Source of the DNA: a virus | Lineage: Duplodnaviria; Caudoviricetes | IMG/VR virus record: IMGVR_UViG_3300029305_002470 | Location: 1 to 64,000 of that record | Length of the DNA stretch: 64,000 nucleotides | Direction: 5' to 3' (one strand) | Part shown: positions 32,344 to 54,002 of the stretch, one piece after another | Position numbering within the stretch: position 1 is the stretch's first letter | Layout: every line of letters begins with the position of its first letter | Notes under the pieces: model-generated | Seen by the model: the letters and a program-made list of their open reading frames with translations, nothing else | Database searches by the model: none | Told to the model about the DNA's origin: nothing | Position numbers and translations under genes: made by a program

Positions 32344-34947
32344 TTAACACTGTCCAGATTTCTGTTCAGCATATATCTTACGCATGAACATCCTTTTATA
32401 TTCTTTACGAGCAATATGCGCACATTCTTCAGAACAATATTTTTTTTCTACATAATCTACGTCTTCAATCCTTGCTCCACATATAGGACATATACTTCCA
32501 AGAGCAGAAGAATTGCGTTGTATATTCTGATAGATTTCTTTTCCAAAACATTCCCATAATGTTTTTTTTGAACTATTTTTTCGTTGCACATATAAAAAAT
32601 AAATTAATGTATCAACAATAGTTTCTTGAGAAAAAGGTAATGCTAATAATTTCTTTTTTATCTGTTGATAAATATAACTATCATATTTCTTTGTGTTTAA
32701 ATTATCTTTATCATCAATAACTTTATAAAATTTATATTTATGTGAATTTAAATAATCATATGTTGTAACAATATCTTCATATATATCTTTATACAAATAT
32801 TTTTTATCATGCAATAAAACACGGTAATCAAATTTACCTATACTTTTATTAAATTTAATTCTTACATTAGGGATAATATTTTCTAAATAATTAACGGCAG
32901 TGGGCTTCCACGATGTTATTTGATGCTCAGACTTATCTTTAGCATATTTAAAATAATACGGCAATAAATCTGTTGTATAACTTTTAATTATTTTATCTAT
33001 ATCATTTGGTCTTTTTATTTTATACAGTGTTTTAGCGTAATCAATTACAAAATTATTTTCACATGTTAACCACTTAACAACATTGATTTCTCTATCTGTA
33101 ATTTTTCCACTATTCCAAACCTTAGAAATGTTATTACTAATTATACCAATATTACCGCCAGTATAAGCTAATTCCAAACCATGAAATAAAGTATTGCCAT
33201 TAATTTGTGATGGTTCAGCTTTTCGCATATTATAATATAATGGAACAATATTTTGCATATTACGTTTAGCTAAACGAATTAATTGTTTTTCTCTGACTAC
33301 AAGACTTTTGTCTCCGTCAACATCAAATTGTAAAATTTTACTTATCAAATCATGACAACTCGTATAAACACATTTAGTATCAAACCATTTATCCGTCAAA
33401 TCATTTTGCACATTTCTACGAATAGCATGTTCCTTATATAAATGTGGCGAACGCAAACAATCTAATTCTTCGCCATCTCTATATAAATTACAACTAATTT
33501 CACCTTTTGATAATAAACCTTGTGGATTTTTATCTCCTAAAAATAACCATTCACAAAAAGCATAAAGGTCTGGTGCAAGAAAAGTATACTTACCATCAAT
33601 CGCTAATTTACCAGCCTTACCCCATTTAACTAAACTACGCTTAACATCTTTAATAATATCTCTGCTATATTTATCTCGCATTAACTCAGGATATAACATT
33701 AAGCTCTTTTGAATATAACTTGGACTTATATTCTCTTCTACCGCTCCAAGCAAACGCATTGTTGTTCTATAATCTTCACCAACATTTTTTATTTCTTCAA
33801 CAGTACGTTTAGCTAGTGAACGCATTTCTCTCGGTTTAATATCAGTTAATGTTTGCAACATCTGATAATTAATACGAGCATTTGGTATAAATTCTTCCTC
33901 TTGATTTATACGACCTGCCGTACAACAATATTCTTTATACCATCTTTTATATTGTTCCCATGAATCATAATATTTCCACATTTTAAATTGTGATTTAGTA
34001 AATATATATTTAATATCTTCTTTAAAAATATCATGTATATTACCATATATATCTTTAATAATACCACAATTACAATTAGGGTTCAAGGAATGTTCTTGTA
34101 TAAATTTCCTAAAGTCAAATTTTACTAATAATCCTTTTATCCATGGAAGTCTAACCATAGTTGTTGTATCATCTAACATAATACCACAACCATCCATGTG
34201 TGGAATTAAAACATCCATACATTGTCGTGTAATAGAATAATCAGTATCGTCTATATAATCAACTTCATCATTTACAAAGGTTTCGAAATCATCTACTACA
34301 ATTGCTTTATCAATATTAAAATCTTCCCAAACCTCTGTTGCAGAATTGGCTAAAGCATAATAAGCTAGAAATTTATTTACATTAACTCCACCACGGCGAT
34401 TAATTTCTTCAATGCTTAATCCACACATCAATGTCTTTTCATATTGTTTTAATTTTTCTTCTTTTACTACTACAAATTTTTTTGTTCTTATTTGTCCTGC
34501 GCTTGCACTAAATAATACATATTTTTGTCCATTATATATAAAACCGTTTTTTATAATATCTTCTGCAACTTGAAAAAAATAAACTTGCACAATCATTATA
34601 TCTTCAGTAAGTTCATTTGTTTTACATTGAAATGTTCTTGTTAAAAATGATTCAAATATTGATACTACATTTCTATCATTAATACATTCAGTTCTTAATT
34701 CTCTTAATTGATTATTTTGTCTTGTTTGTTCAAATTCTTTATATAATTTATTTTTTTGATTATTAATATATTTATCTATTTTATTTAATTGATGTGAATA
34801 TAATGAATCTCTTTTCTTTTTATTTTTAATTTTATTTCTTAAATAATATAATCTTACTAACTTATTATGTATATTCATTTCTTGCTGGTTATAAAAGCAA
34901 GCCGTATCCAACGAATACACATGTATCTGCTTTTCTAATCCAAGCAC
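32344..34947 (-). CDS. YonO-like single-subunit (double-psi barrel) RNA polymerase
   Basis: FSASAGQIR, DGCG, RLPWIKG, RSPHL and QFDVDGD catalytic motif; sits at the head of the late operon as yonO does in SPbeta. Confidence 0.88.
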   Translation of the reverse strand: MLGLEKQIHVYSLDTACFYNQQEMNIHNKLVRLYYLRNKIKNKKKRDSLYSHQLNKIDKYINNQKNKLYKEFEQTRQNNQLRELRTECINDRNVVSIFESFLTRTFQCKTNELTEDIMIVQVYFFQVAEDIIKNGFIYNGQKYVLFSASAGQIRTKKFVVVKEEKLKQYEKTLMCGLSIEEINRRGGVNVNKFLAYYALANSATEVWEDFNIDKAIVVDDFETFVNDEVDYIDDTDYSITRQCMDVLIPHMDGCGIMLDDTTTMVRLPWIKGLLVKFDFRKFIQEHSLNPNCNCGIIKDIYGNIHDIFKEDIKYIFTKSQFKMWKYYDSWEQYKRWYKEYCCTAGRINQEEEFIPNARINYQMLQTLTDIKPREMRSLAKRTVEEIKNVGEDYRTTMRLLGAVEENISPSYIQKSLMLYPELMRDKYSRDIIKDVKRSLVKWGKAGKLAIDGKYTFLAPDLYAFCEWLFLGDKNPQGLLSKGEISCNLYRDGEELDCLRSPHLYKEHAIRRNVQNDLTDKWFDTKCVYTSCHDLISKILQFDVDGDKSLVVREKQLIRLAKRNMQNIVPLYYNMRKAEPSQINGNTLFHGLELAYTGGNIGIISNNISKVWNSGKITDREINVVKWLTCENNFVIDYAKTLYKIKRPNDIDKIIKSYTTDLLPYYFKYAKDKSEHQITSWKPTAVNYLENIIPNVRIKFNKSIGKFDYRVLLHDKKYLYKDIYEDIVTTYDYLNSHKYKFYKVIDDKDNLNTKKYDSYIYQQIKKKLLALPFSQETIVDTLIYFLYVQRKNSSKKTLWECFGKEIYQNIQRNSSALGSICPICGARIEDVDYVEKKYCSEECAHIARKEYKRMFMRKIYAEQKSGQC

Positions 34948-45422: not shown

Positions 45423-46178
45423 ATGATACAATTATATAATGATGATTGTTTTAACATATTTAAATCTATAGAAGATAATTCTATAGATTTAATATTATGT
45501 GATTTGCCATATGGATTAAGTCGCACAAAAAAGATATGGGATTGTGCGTTACCATTAGATAAATTGTGGCAAGAATATAATCGTATTATTAAATCACAAG
45601 GTAATATAGTTTTATTTAGTAGTGGGTTGTTTACTATTGATTTAATTAACAGCAATCGTAAACAATATAAATATAAACTTATATGGAAAAAGAATACTGC
45701 AAGCGGTATGGGACTTGCTAAATATCGTCCTATGAATTATTACGAAGAGATATGTGTATTTAATAATACTAATGCTACATATAATCCTCAGATGAAACTA
45801 AGAGAAAACAAAGCTAAACATTCATATAAATACAATCATTCATGCCGTAATAGTAATCATGTTAATTTTAAAGATAAAGAATATAAATATAATCCAGATT
45901 GGGTACAGCCAAGTAATGTTTTAGAATTTAATACTGTACCTAATCGTAATGGTAAATTGCATCCAACACAAAAACCAGTAGATTTATGTGAATGGTTAAT
46001 TAAAACATATAGTAATGAAAATGATATTGTATTGGATAATTGTATGGGCAGTGGGACTACTGGTGTGGCATGTATAAATACTAATAGAAATTTTATTGGT
46101 ATTGAAATAGATGATGGTTATTTTAATATAGCGGAGCAAAGAATAAATGAAAAAACGAATAGACCCAATAATGGTTAA
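45423..46178 (+). CDS. DNA methyltransferase (N4-C/N6-A, beta class)
   Basis: DLPYG before HPTQKP and D.CMGSGTTG. Confidence 0.9.
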   Translation: MIQLYNDDCFNIFKSIEDNSIDLILCDLPYGLSRTKKIWDCALPLDKLWQEYNRIIKSQGNIVLFSSGLFTIDLINSNRKQYKYKLIWKKNTASGMGLAKYRPMNYYEEICVFNNTNATYNPQMKLRENKAKHSYKYNHSCRNSNHVNFKDKEYKYNPDWVQPSNVLEFNTVPNRNGKLHPTQKPVDLCEWLIKTYSNENDIVLDNCMGSGTTGVACINTNRNFIGIEIDDGYFNIAEQRINEKTNRPNNG

Positions 46179-46660: not shown

Positions 46661-47419
46661 ATGAATTATTTTGGTAGCAAAAGTAGACAAGCTAAATATA
46701 TTGTACCTATTATACAAAAGTATATAGATGATAATGGTGTTAGTATGTATTTAGAGCCATTTGTAGGTGGAGCAAATATTATAGATAAAATAGTTTGTGA
46801 TAATAAAATTGGCACAGATATAAATAAATATATTATAGCATTATTTAACTATATACAAAATGGTGGACGATTAAAAGATTCTTATACAAAAGATATATAT
46901 GATAAAGCTCGTAAAGCTTGGCACAATAATAATAAAGATAAAGAATTTGAAGATTGGGAAATAGGTGCTATAGGTTGGCTGTGCAGTTATAATGGTCGTG
47001 GGTTTGATGGTGGATGGGGATATGAAGCTATGCAAACTAAGCCAAATGGAAAGACTGTACATAGGAAGTTTTATGAAGAGCGCAAAAATAATTTACTAAA
47101 ACAAGCACAATCTCTATTATGGCAGGATATTAAGTTTGAATGTTTAGATTATAGAGAACATTATCTAGTTAACTGTGTAATATATTGTGACCCACCCTAT
47201 AAAGGGACAAAACAATTTGCCAATTCTGTTAAGTTTGACCATGAAGAATTTTGGGATATTATGAGGGATTGGAGTAAAAGAAATATAGTTCTTATTTCTG
47301 AGCAAGAAGCACCAGATGATTTTGTTTGTATTTGGGAAAAAGAGGTAGCAAGAACTATTATACCAAAAGCAATACCGAAGTCAACTGAAAAATTATTTAT
47401 ATATAAGGATAATATATGA
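46661..47419 (+). CDS. Dam-like (D12 class) DNA adenine methyltransferase
   Basis: Y.GSK, YLEPFVGGA, YCDPPY, ISE. Confidence 0.88.
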   Translation: MNYFGSKSRQAKYIVPIIQKYIDDNGVSMYLEPFVGGANIIDKIVCDNKIGTDINKYIIALFNYIQNGGRLKDSYTKDIYDKARKAWHNNNKDKEFEDWEIGAIGWLCSYNGRGFDGGWGYEAMQTKPNGKTVHRKFYEERKNNLLKQAQSLLWQDIKFECLDYREHYLVNCVIYCDPPYKGTKQFANSVKFDHEEFWDIMRDWSKRNIVLISEQEAPDDFVCIWEKEVARTIIPKAIPKSTEKLFIYKDNI

Positions 47420-50127: not shown

Positions 50128-50496
50128 TTGGAAGTTTCCATGATTAATGGAGAGTTTGAAATGCAGTCAATGATAGATATGAATGAATTTATAAATTATG
50201 GAACATGTTATGATGTAGGAGTAATTTATAAAGATTTTAAATGGGCAAATAAAATATATGATATATTATATAATAAATTAAATGCCGCCATATATACTCA
50301 TCGCAGAAATAGGTATTATATGGATATGACATTATGTGGTGGTATAAGATATAGGTTTTTAAAAGCTGATAATAATTTAGCAGGGTATTATTTTAACAGA
50401 GTATTTATACAGGGAAGTGTATCACAGGATTATATAGATGATTATATTAAGCCAACATTGTATCATCAGAGTGATATAGTTGTCATAGATGATTAG
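50128..50496 (+). CDS. hypothetical protein
   Basis: Last ORF before the non-coding island. Confidence 0.55.
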   Translation: MEVSMINGEFEMQSMIDMNEFINYGTCYDVGVIYKDFKWANKIYDILYNKLNAAIYTHRRNRYYMDMTLCGGIRYRFLKADNNLAGYYFNRVFIQGSVSQDYIDDYIKPTLYHQSDIVVIDD

Positions 50497-50650
50497 TGTT
50501 TGGATGATATGTTACTCAGAATTTACATAGTTTTTTAACGTAAATGGCGGTAATTTCAAGAGAAAGATGGATTATGATATAGTTGATTGTTTAAATAAAT
50601 AAAATGTCTTAAAATCTTGATAGGTCAATATTTTTAATATGGTAAATGAG

Positions 50651-50679
50651 AAAAACAGTACAAAACGTACTGTTTTTTT
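50651..50679. terminator. bidirectional intrinsic terminator
   Basis: AAAAACAGTAC-aaaac-GTACTGTTTTTTT. Confidence 0.7.
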
Positions 50680-51420
50680 ATTGTGCTTGTTTTTAGGACA
50701 TTGAATGTACGGTTTTTTACTGAATGTATTGTTTTTGGTGGTAAATGTAAAGTTTGTTTTACGTATGTAAAGTATTCTTTACATGGAATAATAGTTTGGA
50801 GATTGTGTGGAAAGAGGGTAGATTAGATGTGGAAATTTTGTAATATACAGGGATATTTAAATGTTGGAAAAGAGTTGGAATTTTAAGGGGTTGAGGGAAT
50901 TTAGGTATATAGTTTATTGCTGGCTGATTCATGTCTGATGACTGGTTTGGTATGGCTTCGAAGAACTTGAAGTTAGTTATCTCTAACTCGTTTGAAAAAT
51001 ACCCCCTCTTGCATAAAATTTTTGTGAAAAAACACAAAATAAGGGATAAAAAAATAGTGAAAATGATTATTTTCACTAAAATAATATATCATTTTATCGG
51101 TCAACTTGATTTTATCTTTTGTTCAAAATCACAAAAAATCAGCTTATATTGCACTGTTTTTTGTGTATTTTCACAATATAACGTGTTCTAATATGGCGTT
51201 GAATTTTGTGGTAAAACACAAAAAAATCCTTAAAATTTGTGTAAAATACACAAAAAATATTGTATACATGTGTACCATGCAAGCGTATAAATACAAGTAT
51301 ACTTGTATACAATAGCGTGTATACTTGTACACACAACACAACAATGTATACAATCAAGTAAATGTATATATGAATACATTCATCTGTATACTTGTATACA
51401 TATGTATATATATTCATATA

Positions 51421-51510
51421 TTAGCACTCATTCATTGTGAGTGATAACAATAATTAGCACTCGTTTATATTGAGTGCTAACTATTAGCACTCGTATTCAG
51501 TGAGTGCTAA
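51421..51510. promoter_or_regulatory. three tandem CIRCE elements (HrcA operators)
   Basis: TTAGCACTC-N9-GAGTGCTAA at 51454-51480 and 51484-51510 (perfect), and 51421-51447 (one mismatch). Confidence 0.9.
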
Positions 51511-51531
51511 TAGTTAAAAGTTTCACAATAT

Positions 51532-51594
51532 TGTTTCACGTGAAACATAACAAAATATTTTTATCTTTATTGTACCTTTGTTTCACGTGAAACA
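51532..51594. promoter_or_regulatory. two parS sites (ParB/Spo0J)
   Basis: TGTTTCACGTGAAACA at 51532-51547 and 51579-51594, matching the bacterial chromosomal parS consensus. Confidence 0.9.
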
Positions 51595-52211
51595 TTGTAC
51601 CATTGTACTAATACATTAATACAATAATATACATGTTAAAAAAATATCAATATTGTTGCTATACACAAATTATGAATGTTTCACGATATAAATTTTGTAT
51701 GTTTCACACAAATAGTAGAATTTTTAACGAGAGTTTTAATAAACTAACTTTTGTGTTTCAGAACAAAAAATTTAAAAATTATTTGTGTATTCAATACAAA
51801 ATTGATAAATTTTTAACGCTATTTTCAGTATAAAAATGAAAAAAACATAAAAAAACAATTGTGTTGTAAACATAAAAAATTTAAAAAAAATTTGTGTAAA
51901 TACACAAATAAAATATAGCATGTCAGCAATACGATTTTATCATATTTTCAGAGCCTCAAAACGTTGAAATTTCAATGCTTCCAGCCTCAAAAATAGCAAA
52001 ATGTTTTTTCAGTTTCCTTCATTATAACGCGTGTAAAGCCCTTCTTGAATTGTATTATTGTATTAATACAGTCATACAATAAAGTCGGTTTAAACTGACA
52101 ATTGACACAACTAAAAAAATTCTTAAAATGATAATTGCAAGGCGGCAAAAAGTCCGCACATTCTCACATAGTCGGTTTAAACTGACAAATACAGAAAGGA
52201 AAGGTTACATT

Positions 52212-52832
52212 ATGAAAACTACAAACAACGCAAAGGTAAAGGTTACAACTCTTAACGCTCAGACAATTGAAATGCTCAACGTTCAGCTTGATATTATCAA
52301 ATCAAAAGGTACAACGTCACTTAATGCTGATATTGCAAGGGCAAAGGCACTCTATACCATTAAAGATGCCGCACTCTATGAGTGCGACAATTGCAAGTCC
52401 TTTAAAGAATGGTATAACGTAAAACATGACGGTACAATCTATGGTATTACGTACAAATCAGCTTGTATTCTTATCAATACATATGCTAACGTATGGTCAC
52501 ATAAAACATTTAAGGCACTGCCTTTATCAATTGCGTGCCGTATGGCGTCAGCTTGCAAAAATGCTGACAATGTAAAAGCATGTGAAAGGCTTGTTGCGGA
52601 AGGTAAAATTAAGCCTGACATGACACAAAACGCCATAAATGATTTACTTAAGGCGGAAGGTATTGTAAAGGCAAAAACTGACAATTTGAGTGCGCCAGCA
52701 CCAAAAACCGCTGACGCTGACAATGACACCGTAAAGGTTGCGCTTGCTATGGTCAACGCTTTTATGAAAAGCAATTGCAAGGATGAAACAATAATGGATA
52801 ATTGGAACGTCATACTTGATGCGCTTAAGTAA
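52212..52832 (+). CDS. hypothetical protein, first gene of the early-type region
   Basis: ATG 52212 after AGAAAGGAAAGG; own promoter and terminator. Confidence 0.75.
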   Translation: MKTTNNAKVKVTTLNAQTIEMLNVQLDIIKSKGTTSLNADIARAKALYTIKDAALYECDNCKSFKEWYNVKHDGTIYGITYKSACILINTYANVWSHKTFKALPLSIACRMASACKNADNVKACERLVAEGKIKPDMTQNAINDLLKAEGIVKAKTDNLSAPAPKTADADNDTVKVALAMVNAFMKSNCKDETIMDNWNVILDALK

Positions 52833-53428: not shown

Positions 53429-53675
53429 TTCTGTTATTATAATGGTGGGCGTGGATTTTGCCCATGCTCACCATTGTTTCAAAATGAATTCAGCAAAAGT
53501 CAGTTTAAACTGACAATTCAAAATTGAATTCAAAAATCCATCTTAAAAATCGAAATGAGAATTTAAAATGCGCTTTTAAGTTTTGATTTAGATTTTTGAA
53601 ACTATTTTTGAATTTTAGTTTTGAAATTCTATTATGAAATTCTAATTTCAGTTTTTAATTTTGCGAGGTGTAATT

Positions 53676-54002
53676 ATGATTAATTTTGAAAATATTGCAA
53701 CATATAATCTGTATGTTGGTCTGAATGACAAGGATAAATATGTTCAGATTATTGATGATGATTTTGCTATGCAGACAGTGCGCGATGTCGTATCTAATAT
53801 TGTAGGTGGTGCGACTTTTACAAAATCATTCGGACATTGGGTGGATGAATTCGGAAATGAAACTACAGAATCGACTATTGTTGTTAAAATTACTGCGACA
53901 GATGATGCGCACATTGAGCGCATATGTGAAATTCTGAATTCAAAATTAAATCAGAATTGCATAATGGTTGAGAAAAGTTTGTCGCAGATTGCCTTTGTAT
54001 AA
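53676..54002 (+). CDS. DUF3574-like protein
   Basis: LYVGLND...GAT.....G.W.D..G....E...V; start moved to ATG 53676. Confidence 0.55.
   Translation: MINFENIATYNLYVGLNDKDKYVQIIDDDFAMQTVRDVVSNIVGGATFTKSFGHWVDEFGNETTESTIVVKITATDDAHIERICEILNSKLNQNCIMVEKSLSQIAFV

Follow-up and report, generated by a model that had tools for sequence, protein, structure and literature searches.

To understand why a phage genome should carry operators of the bacterial heat-shock response beside bacterial centromere sites, we examined a gene-free island in the uncultured virus record IMGVR_UViG_3300029305_002470 (designated G000), which comes from ruminant faeces and is classed in IMG/VR as linear and ~71% complete. 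The window analysed is the first 64 kb of this 86.5-kb record, and the island lies at 50.65-52.2 kb of the window (~1.7 kb), between an accessory gene block and the early genes. Within 175 bp it holds three copies of the controlling inverted repeat of chaperone expression (CIRCE), the operator of HrcA, and two copies of parS, the chromosomal partition site. The initial annotation of this DNA, made from the letters alone, knew of no phage in which the two are clustered in this way; we found no description of CIRCE on a phage genome in the full-text literature, and for parS without par genes we found only the work on phi29. The locus raises the question of which proteins read these sites and what the phage may gain from them. 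The answer that we favour, at about even confidence and from sequence comparison, is that a clade of SPbeta-like, YonO-encoding gut phages has conserved this non-coding island as a control region, which may act as a docking hub for host proteins.

CIRCE and parS sites in a gene-free island

The CIRCE/HrcA regulon occurs in Firmicutes and other bacteria, in whose chaperone operons the operator separates the -10 box from the start codon. This heat-shock regulon was reportedly described by Zuber and Schumann in 1994. CIRCE consists of the inverted repeat TTAGCACTC-N9-GAGTGCTAA, of which the island carries three tandem copies at 51421, 51454 and 51484 (51421..51510) with 1, 0 and 0 mismatches, against 0.01 expected. 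parS is the 16-bp palindrome TGTTNCACGTGAAACA, represented by two perfect copies of the chromosomal type at 51532 and 51579 (51532..51594), 47 bp apart, with isolated half-sites, TGTTTCAC, at 51677 and 51700. The two copies match TGTTTCACGTGAAACA, the consensus used for gut bacteria (PMC10197239, after Livny et al. 2007), and are the only sites in the window with two or fewer mismatches to it (0.14 expected). Every CIRCE and parS copy of the 86.5-kb record, and every palindrome of the TTGTG class described below, is confined to the island, and none of the three CIRCE has a counterpart elsewhere in the record.

The initial annotation had described a non-coding island of about 1.6 kb, and this description was confirmed: there is no credible gene in 50.65-52.2 kb, and its eight short open reading frames have no match to a PHROG family. 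A tRNA search of the island found none, an Rfam scan of it with a permissive cut-off returned no family, its matches being chance ones of the microRNA type on the palindromes, and the island DNA matched none of 50,697 phage records. Contigs from RNA libraries cover 50397-51084 and 51660-77, which we do not take as transcription since DNA carry-over is possible. The elements that had been listed (a terminator, five TTGTG palindromes, a GTATAC cluster, three CIRCE, two parS, and the first early palindrome and promoter) all lie where they had been placed, and the comparisons bear out the proposal of a DNA-only module of putative protein-binding sites, two classes of which, CIRCE and parS, are exact operators of host chromosomes.

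Searches for ParB_N, ParA-type (AAA_31/CbiA), HrcA and GroES (Cpn10) proteins found none in G000 or in 4-5 complete relatives. Because the phages encode neither HrcA nor ParB, host proteins probably read the sites, and host HrcA and ParB, which would be expected to bind them, are the only candidate readers in view. The HrcA and Spo0J proteins of Bacillus subtilis each recognise the consensus to which the respective phage sites conform. A Bacilli metagenome-assembled genome (MAG), G025, which holds a phage contig of the G009 type, has hrcA, carries CIRCE 14-60 nucleotides before clpB, htpG and hrcA-grpE, and contains three parS identical to the phage parS, two of its sites lying 118 bp apart; parS of this sequence is found in two MAGs with contigs of relatives.

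Authenticity and conservation of the island

The initial annotation had itself raised the concern that the island could be a misassembled piece of host chromosome. This is ruled out by a 5-kb contig from an independent sheep-gut study that spans 49.5-53.1 kb at ~95% identity, with only the G-rich tract replaced; since the contig bridges the whole locus, the island is neither host DNA nor a misassembly. The sequencing runs that hold G000 sequence are faecal and ruminant-gut metagenomes, the evidence from runs being assembled contigs. In gut metagenomes, the parS words are the only parts of the island that match contigs of many other organisms, as would be predicted of a site universal in bacteria.

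A second concern had been that the island might be absent from relatives, and this is not the case, as the module is kept in diverged ones. Capsid-protein searches placed 19 contigs of viruses and 2 from MAGs in the same clade, with major capsid proteins 50-89% identical and a syntenic structural module; in G001 (116 kb, complete) the structural module is syntenic at 25-50% protein identity. CIRCE and/or parS are found at the same place, before the early genes, in L390, L290, L292, G001 and the G008 group, one of these five, a short contig, having parS only. As in G000, the island of the relatives follows an accessory block transcribed away from the structural genes and precedes the early genes.

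L390 (~70-75% nucleotide identity) has the same order of terminator, G-rich tract, CTGGTTTGGTATGGCT, TTGTG palindromes, about ten GTATAC words, three CIRCE and parS, within which the contig is cut; in its CIRCE the arms are retained, but each of the three N9 spacers has changed. L290 (early protein 58% identical) contains one CIRCE and one parS-like site, with 1 and 2 mismatches respectively, two TTGTG palindromes, a G-rich tract, two copies of TTGTGAAAAAACACAA, the TTGTATTAATACAA motif and the early palindrome cassette, with the elements in a different order, and L292 contains a perfect parS and three TTGTG palindromes. In G001, two CIRCE flanked by GTATACA words and the only parS lie within 350 bp at the syntenic spot, the parS being inside a purine-rich tract that turns C-rich. 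GTATAC words adjoin CIRCE in L390 as well as in G001. The G008 group (G008, G009, G011, G012, G014 and G016) has one CIRCE-like site, and in four of the six variants (G008, G009, G011 and G014) the only parS of the genome lies ~1 kb from it in a G-poor pyrimidine tract. A single perfect parS copy is present in each of G001, G008, G009 and G011. The island of the G008 group is 90-97% conserved, compared with 35-78% for the early genes downstream. Between these lineages no alignment of the islands is possible, and yet they keep the same two host sites, which indicates selection on the sites themselves.

This pattern bears on the proposal that the palindromes are read by phage proteins with matching specificity, or are relics of host DNA that serve no function. 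Many early proteins belong to no known family, the 206-residue first early protein included, and they could in principle supply such a reader; for the latter the Atlas gave DUF3102 and, at TM 0.42, a plasmid-partition N-terminal fold, leads that were too weak and were not used. No member of the clade, however, has an HrcA or ParB domain, no fragment of a chaperone or par gene lies beside the sites, and neutral remnants are excluded by the retention of the arms while spacers and flanks diverge across unalignable lineages. We regard the proposal as highly improbable.

The relatives also bear on the position of the island, which the initial annotation had placed possibly at the genome end. A physical end, or a packaging or injection-control region comparable to the first-step-transfer non-coding region of T5, would suit a gene-free, repeat-rich border of two transcription blocks, and two contigs do end inside the island: L390, and G024:C40 (CALBXN010000040.1), which is 49.7 kb long, belongs to a close relative (80% capsid identity; 85% nucleotide identity in the HD gene) and comes from an uncultured MAG labelled Treponema. 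They end at different points, though, one of them within a repeated parS word; the sheep-gut contig bridges the island; and in every long relative contig, six in all, the island is internal, at varied distances from the contig ends. Moreover, the terminase and portal genes are ~22-27 kb away, and the exact CIRCE and parS would be left unaccounted for. The suggestion of a genome end found no support, and there is very little chance that this kind of function explains the locus.

The initial annotation had further suggested scanning phage genomes for co-located CIRCE and parS. Among the matches listed, G001 was the only such case, in addition to the relatives found by homology: none of 119 parS-bearing viral loci has CIRCE, only G001 among 113 CIRCE-bearing loci has parS, and none of 120 tandem-CIRCE metagenome loci has parS within 2.5 kb, L390 being the one relative in that set. 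At least nine other viral contigs carry multi-CIRCE arrays among small phage-type genes. In an unrelated lineage, CIRCE arrays head the early region, with four copies at 49-bp spacing in L056 (L056:5375-5548) and two in G002 (L127:12635-12800), a 172-kb phage with terminal repeats; these arrays are mixed with other palindromes, including words of the TGTTACAATTGTAACA type, and G002 has three copies of ATGAAACGTTTCAT. Many viral contigs from sample 3300045988 (such as L011, L020, L026, L044, L045 and L080) have a perfect CIRCE 55-110 nucleotides from the contig end, which could be a prophage border beside a host chaperone operon or a real phage feature.

A predicted docking hub for host proteins

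The CIRCE and parS sites are exclusive to the island, conserved, placed unlike host operators and present without phage-encoded binders, and we infer that host proteins bind them, with consequences that can be predicted. parS would load host ParB and, via ParB, also ParA and SMC, so that non-integrated phage DNA would be positioned and inherited alongside the host chromosome, whether in a carrier state, as a plasmid-like prophage or through spore entrapment as in phi29. Hitch-hiking of a non-integrated genome on host ParB, with ParA and SMC, is the most economical interpretation of parS, and the lack of a classical integrase fits it. The CIRCE array would bind HrcA, whose activity depends on free GroEL, and transcription from the island towards parS and the early genes would in this way be tied to the protein-folding state of the host. 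After genome replication, the many CIRCE copies would also pull HrcA off the few host operators, allowing more chaperone to be made and raising its supply just before assembly.

Several observations weigh against this docking-hub interpretation. The phage CIRCE lie 435-960 nucleotides upstream of the next start codon (702 in G000) and upstream of the strong early promoter, a placement shared by G000, L290, the G008 group and two unrelated phages, L056 and G002. Since CIRCE is far upstream rather than between a -10 box and a start codon, simple repression of the early promoter in cis is unlikely. The only promoters that abut CIRCE are weak matches to the consensus (9/12); in G000 and G001 a weak promoter-like pair, TATACA-(16-18 nt)-TATATT/TACAAT, ends exactly at the first base of a CIRCE and faces parS. 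parS is lost or degraded in two of the six G008-group variants, the complete relative G023 has neither CIRCE nor parS, and neither site was found in the cultured phages SPbeta (SPBc2), c-st, D-1873 and TR-TP2, indicating that the module is dispensable; Perkons has one parS-like palindrome elsewhere in its genome. The only integrase-type gene is an Xer-like recombinase, and the episomal state is putative. Finally, hrcA and CIRCE are both absent from the Treponema-labelled MAG in which the contig of a close relative is binned, and if Treponema were truly the host, HrcA could not be the reader. We rejected Treponema as the host and consider mis-binning probable, given the absence of hrcA and CIRCE and the fact that all cultured relatives infect Firmicutes.

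For CIRCE, a role in cis and titration compete as explanations, the weak CIRCE-abutting promoter pair and the conserved order of the module speaking for the former. In its pure form, which is how the initial annotation read the locus, titration would make the island a DNA sponge with no role in cis, of which hundreds of replicated copies might sequester HrcA and ParB, perhaps with other regulators; groESL and dnaK would then be de-repressed for assembly, and host segregation or entry into sporulation disturbed. Tandem CIRCE beyond the need of one promoter (three here, four in L056 and two in G002) are what a sponge would predict, as are their distance from early promoters and start codons, compared with 14-60 nucleotides in the putative host, the absence of a phage-encoded GroES, and the packing together of several unrelated operator classes. 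Several relatives, on the other hand, have only one CIRCE, imperfect in most of the G008 group, and a single parS. The order and orientation GTATAC, CIRCE, parS are common to G000 and L390, whereas decoys need neither, and titration follows from binding in any case, so that it need not be the selected function. We regard a pure sponge, with its postulated effects on chaperones, segregation and sporulation, as a serious alternative, though less likely than the docking hub. It is also conceivable, though we propose it tentatively, that the island is an operator cassette of host regulator sites which, amplified by replication, would reprogramme the heat-shock response and segregation by titration, while a dormant genome would ride on host ParABS, amounting to a protein-free takeover. 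Equally tentative is the corollary that SPbeta-like and other large Firmicute phages have assembled such cassettes by copying the sites of HrcA, ParB and further regulators.

Other elements of the island

The island holds several further sequence elements, which we describe from upstream to downstream. An intrinsic terminator at 50649..50679 (+), conserved in G024:C40 and L390, closes the accessory (methylase/HD/SPFH) block. It is followed by a G/T-rich, C-poor tract at 50680..50980 (5.3% C, 26.9% G), in which GC skew reaches +0.65; past 51.0 kb the skew is about zero or slightly negative. The strand-composition switch near 51.0 kb proposed by the initial annotation is borne out on its G/T-rich side, but the supposedly A/C-rich half is only mildly C-biased here and more strongly so in relatives. 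The tract is conserved in composition and hypervariable in sequence: 50744-50921 is swapped for 187 other letters in the independent sheep-gut contig, and G-rich tracts occupy the same place in L290, L390 and G024:C40. The G-rich tract folds no better than its shuffles (z = -0.55). At the skew switch lies a conserved core (50945..51019, +), made up of the word CTGGTTTGGTATGGCT and a promoter-like TTGAAA-16-TAAAAT with a CCCCCT spacer at 50992-51019 (+).

The first of the TTGTG-N6/7-CACAA palindromes, at 51022, overlaps the predicted start of this promoter; three more are at 51161, 51206 and 51237 (block 51022..51253), and a fifth, of the N6 form, is at 51892..51907. All five copies of the record are in the island, with four of the N6 form found against 0.07 expected. 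The Rex pattern TTGTGAA-N4-TTCACAA, with 8 nucleotides between TTGTG and CACAA, is matched in the island with 3 mismatches at best, and the 6-7 nucleotides found here exclude canonical Rex. Sites for Spo0A, LexA, CtsR, cre, CodY, DnaA and Rex were sought in the island and none was found; Spo0A boxes (TGTCGAA/TGNCGAA) number 0, where chance would give 0.65 of the loose form. An AT-rich cluster of seven GTATAC copies (51261..51400, copies at 51262-51399) immediately precedes the CIRCE array, and all four window copies of TGTATACA fall inside its 140 nucleotides.

Downstream of parS, a palindrome block of the TTGTAYTAATACA type occurs at 51594..51625, with the same motif in L290, and again at 52049..52080, where it abuts the early promoter cassette; further palindrome classes are TTGTATTAATACAA, GTAAAGTATACTTTAC and GTTGAAATTTCAAC. 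The cassette (52083..52188) consists of the first early promoter, TTGACA-16-TAAAAT of the sigma-A type (52102-52129, +, 11/12 consensus), flanked by two copies of the 19-mer AGTCGGTTTAAACTGACAA at 52083 and 52170. The palindrome AGTC(A/G)GTTTAAACTGAC(A) is present in eight copies between 52083 and 61063, the first two being those of the cassette, all on the + strand and intergenic in the early block, and recurs with compensating changes in L290, L291 and L292. An early regulator encoded by the phage probably has its operator or hairpin here. The first early gene (52212..52832, +) encodes a protein of 206 amino acids, homologues of which mark the same island in relatives. No family of Pfam, PHROG or NCBIfam matches this protein, even with E values up to 5 allowed, and a back-translated search of viral contigs gave no match.

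The repeats and the skewed tract invite a different interpretation, in which the island is a maintenance or replication module: the GTATAC repeats and AT-rich DNA would form an origin, parS would be its partition site, served by host ParAB, CIRCE would tune firing, and the Xer-like recombinase would resolve multimers. The origin could be of the iteron type, or be primed by RNA or an R-loop using the skewed tract. GTATAC-TT-GTATAC units are indeed repeated beside an AT-rich stretch, strand-skewed tracts lie beside or around parS in all lineages, and every member has one Xer-like recombinase and none a serine integrase. There is also a precedent in the cluster A mycobacteriophages, whose extrachromosomal prophages have parABS and non-coding RNA-based origins next to the par locus (PMC7157519). 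On the other side, the island has 0 DnaA boxes against 0.9 expected and no adjoining initiator gene, its repeats, being palindromes, lack the orientation of iterons, cumulative GC skew flattens at the island with no inversion, the skewed tract has no folding beyond that of shuffled sequence, and the exact HrcA operators would be left unaccounted for. A B. subtilis-type dif (28 bp, with a conserved XerD arm) was not found within 8 mismatches in G000, G001, L275, L277 or L290, the search yielding only loose XerD-arm-like words. On balance we consider an origin of either type, and a maintenance module as a whole, unlikely, and retain the docking hub as our favoured interpretation.

Genome context

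The structural genes of G000, including those for the portal, the tape measure and a capsid-region protein, occupy 1-35 kb on the minus strand. Among the genes on this strand is a full-length homologue of the SPbeta single-subunit RNA polymerase YonO (32344-34947, -; phrog_8308, E = 1e-268), which is 46-49% identical to its counterparts in SPbeta, phi3T and Clostridium phage D-1873 and places G000 in a wider SPbeta-like group, all cultured members of which infect Firmicutes. From 35 kb the plus strand is used throughout, first by the accessory block, which encodes an SPFH protein and an HD hydrolase as well as two DNA methylases (45423-46178 and 46661-47419), then, beyond the island, by many small early genes. 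One of these encodes a 113-residue protein (53661-54002, +) with a match to DUF3574 and a weak one to the S-adenosylmethionine lyase family; the protein is likely to be an anti-restriction S-adenosylmethionine lyase, in a genome that also has two DNA methylases.

Replication-type genes start at 67 kb and encode an Xer-like recombinase, a helicase, a 1061-residue DNA polymerase and an anaerobic ribonucleotide reductase. The last of these is NrdD-like (G000 80545-82473; L117:16545-18473) and is consistent with an anaerobic host. The Xer-like tyrosine recombinase (270 amino acids; G000 67249-68061; L117:3249-4061) heads the module and is homologous to SPbeta YopP (E = 3e-10); the repressor YopR was considered as its counterpart and rejected, as the resemblance is to YopP. 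Each complete relative has one such 270-residue recombinase, with no member lacking it, and no serine integrase or recombinase was found in G000 or in 4-5 complete relatives.

Relation to known systems

It is known that a phage can make use of individual DNA-binding proteins of its host, for example IHF, DnaA, LexA or XerCD, or Spo0A and Spo0J in the case of phi29. The phi29 genome carries parS sites for host Spo0J together with Spo0A boxes, which are used for spore entrapment and early transcription (PMC2731898). Like the phages described here, phi29 and Nf of B. subtilis have no ParB and carry host-type parS and operators of a global host regulator near early promoters, and through these sites phi29 couples its own fate to host physiology and chromosome segregation. 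phi29, however, is a 19-kb protein-primed podovirus, in contrast to the ~120-kb SPbeta-like, siphovirus-type genome considered here; its second regulator is Spo0A, for which the island has 0 boxes, in place of HrcA acting at CIRCE; and its sites are spread along the genome instead of being gathered, along with four or more other classes of palindrome, in a single gene-free island of 1.7 kb. What appears new relative to the phi29-type strategy is the additional host regulator HrcA, the distinctive modular island and conservation across a clade.

The phage sites can likewise be set against their chromosomal counterparts. As in host CIRCE, the phage copies form a 9-N9-9 inverted repeat, perfect in two of three, with arms under selection and a free spacer; unlike host CIRCE, they are not followed by a chaperone gene, are in three tandem copies and lie 700 nucleotides upstream of the next gene and also upstream of its promoter. 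Two perfect 16-bp parS sites tens of bp apart are as found in origin-proximal clusters of chromosomes, yet here they are in a phage genome without parAB genes, of which they are the sole parS. P1 and N15 are plasmid prophages. With these and the mycobacteriophage prophages G000 shares a partition site in a central non-coding region and the lack of a classical integrase, but they have their own ParA and ParB and a phage-specific parS, whereas the site here follows the host consensus and par genes are absent.

A whole clade of large uncultured gut phages thus has exact heat-shock operators and a host centromere side by side, without the cognate genes. If host HrcA and ParB bind these sites, the protein-folding state reported by HrcA and GroEL would be a new sensory input for phage decisions and, if this is true, non-integrating phages would have a route to persist in dividing or sporulating gut Firmicutes. 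Orphan CIRCE or parS sites in non-coding phage DNA also provide a simple signature, matched by more than 100 viral contigs in each scan, which could aid the assignment of phages to HrcA- and ParB-bearing host lineages and flag carrier-state phages in metagenomes.

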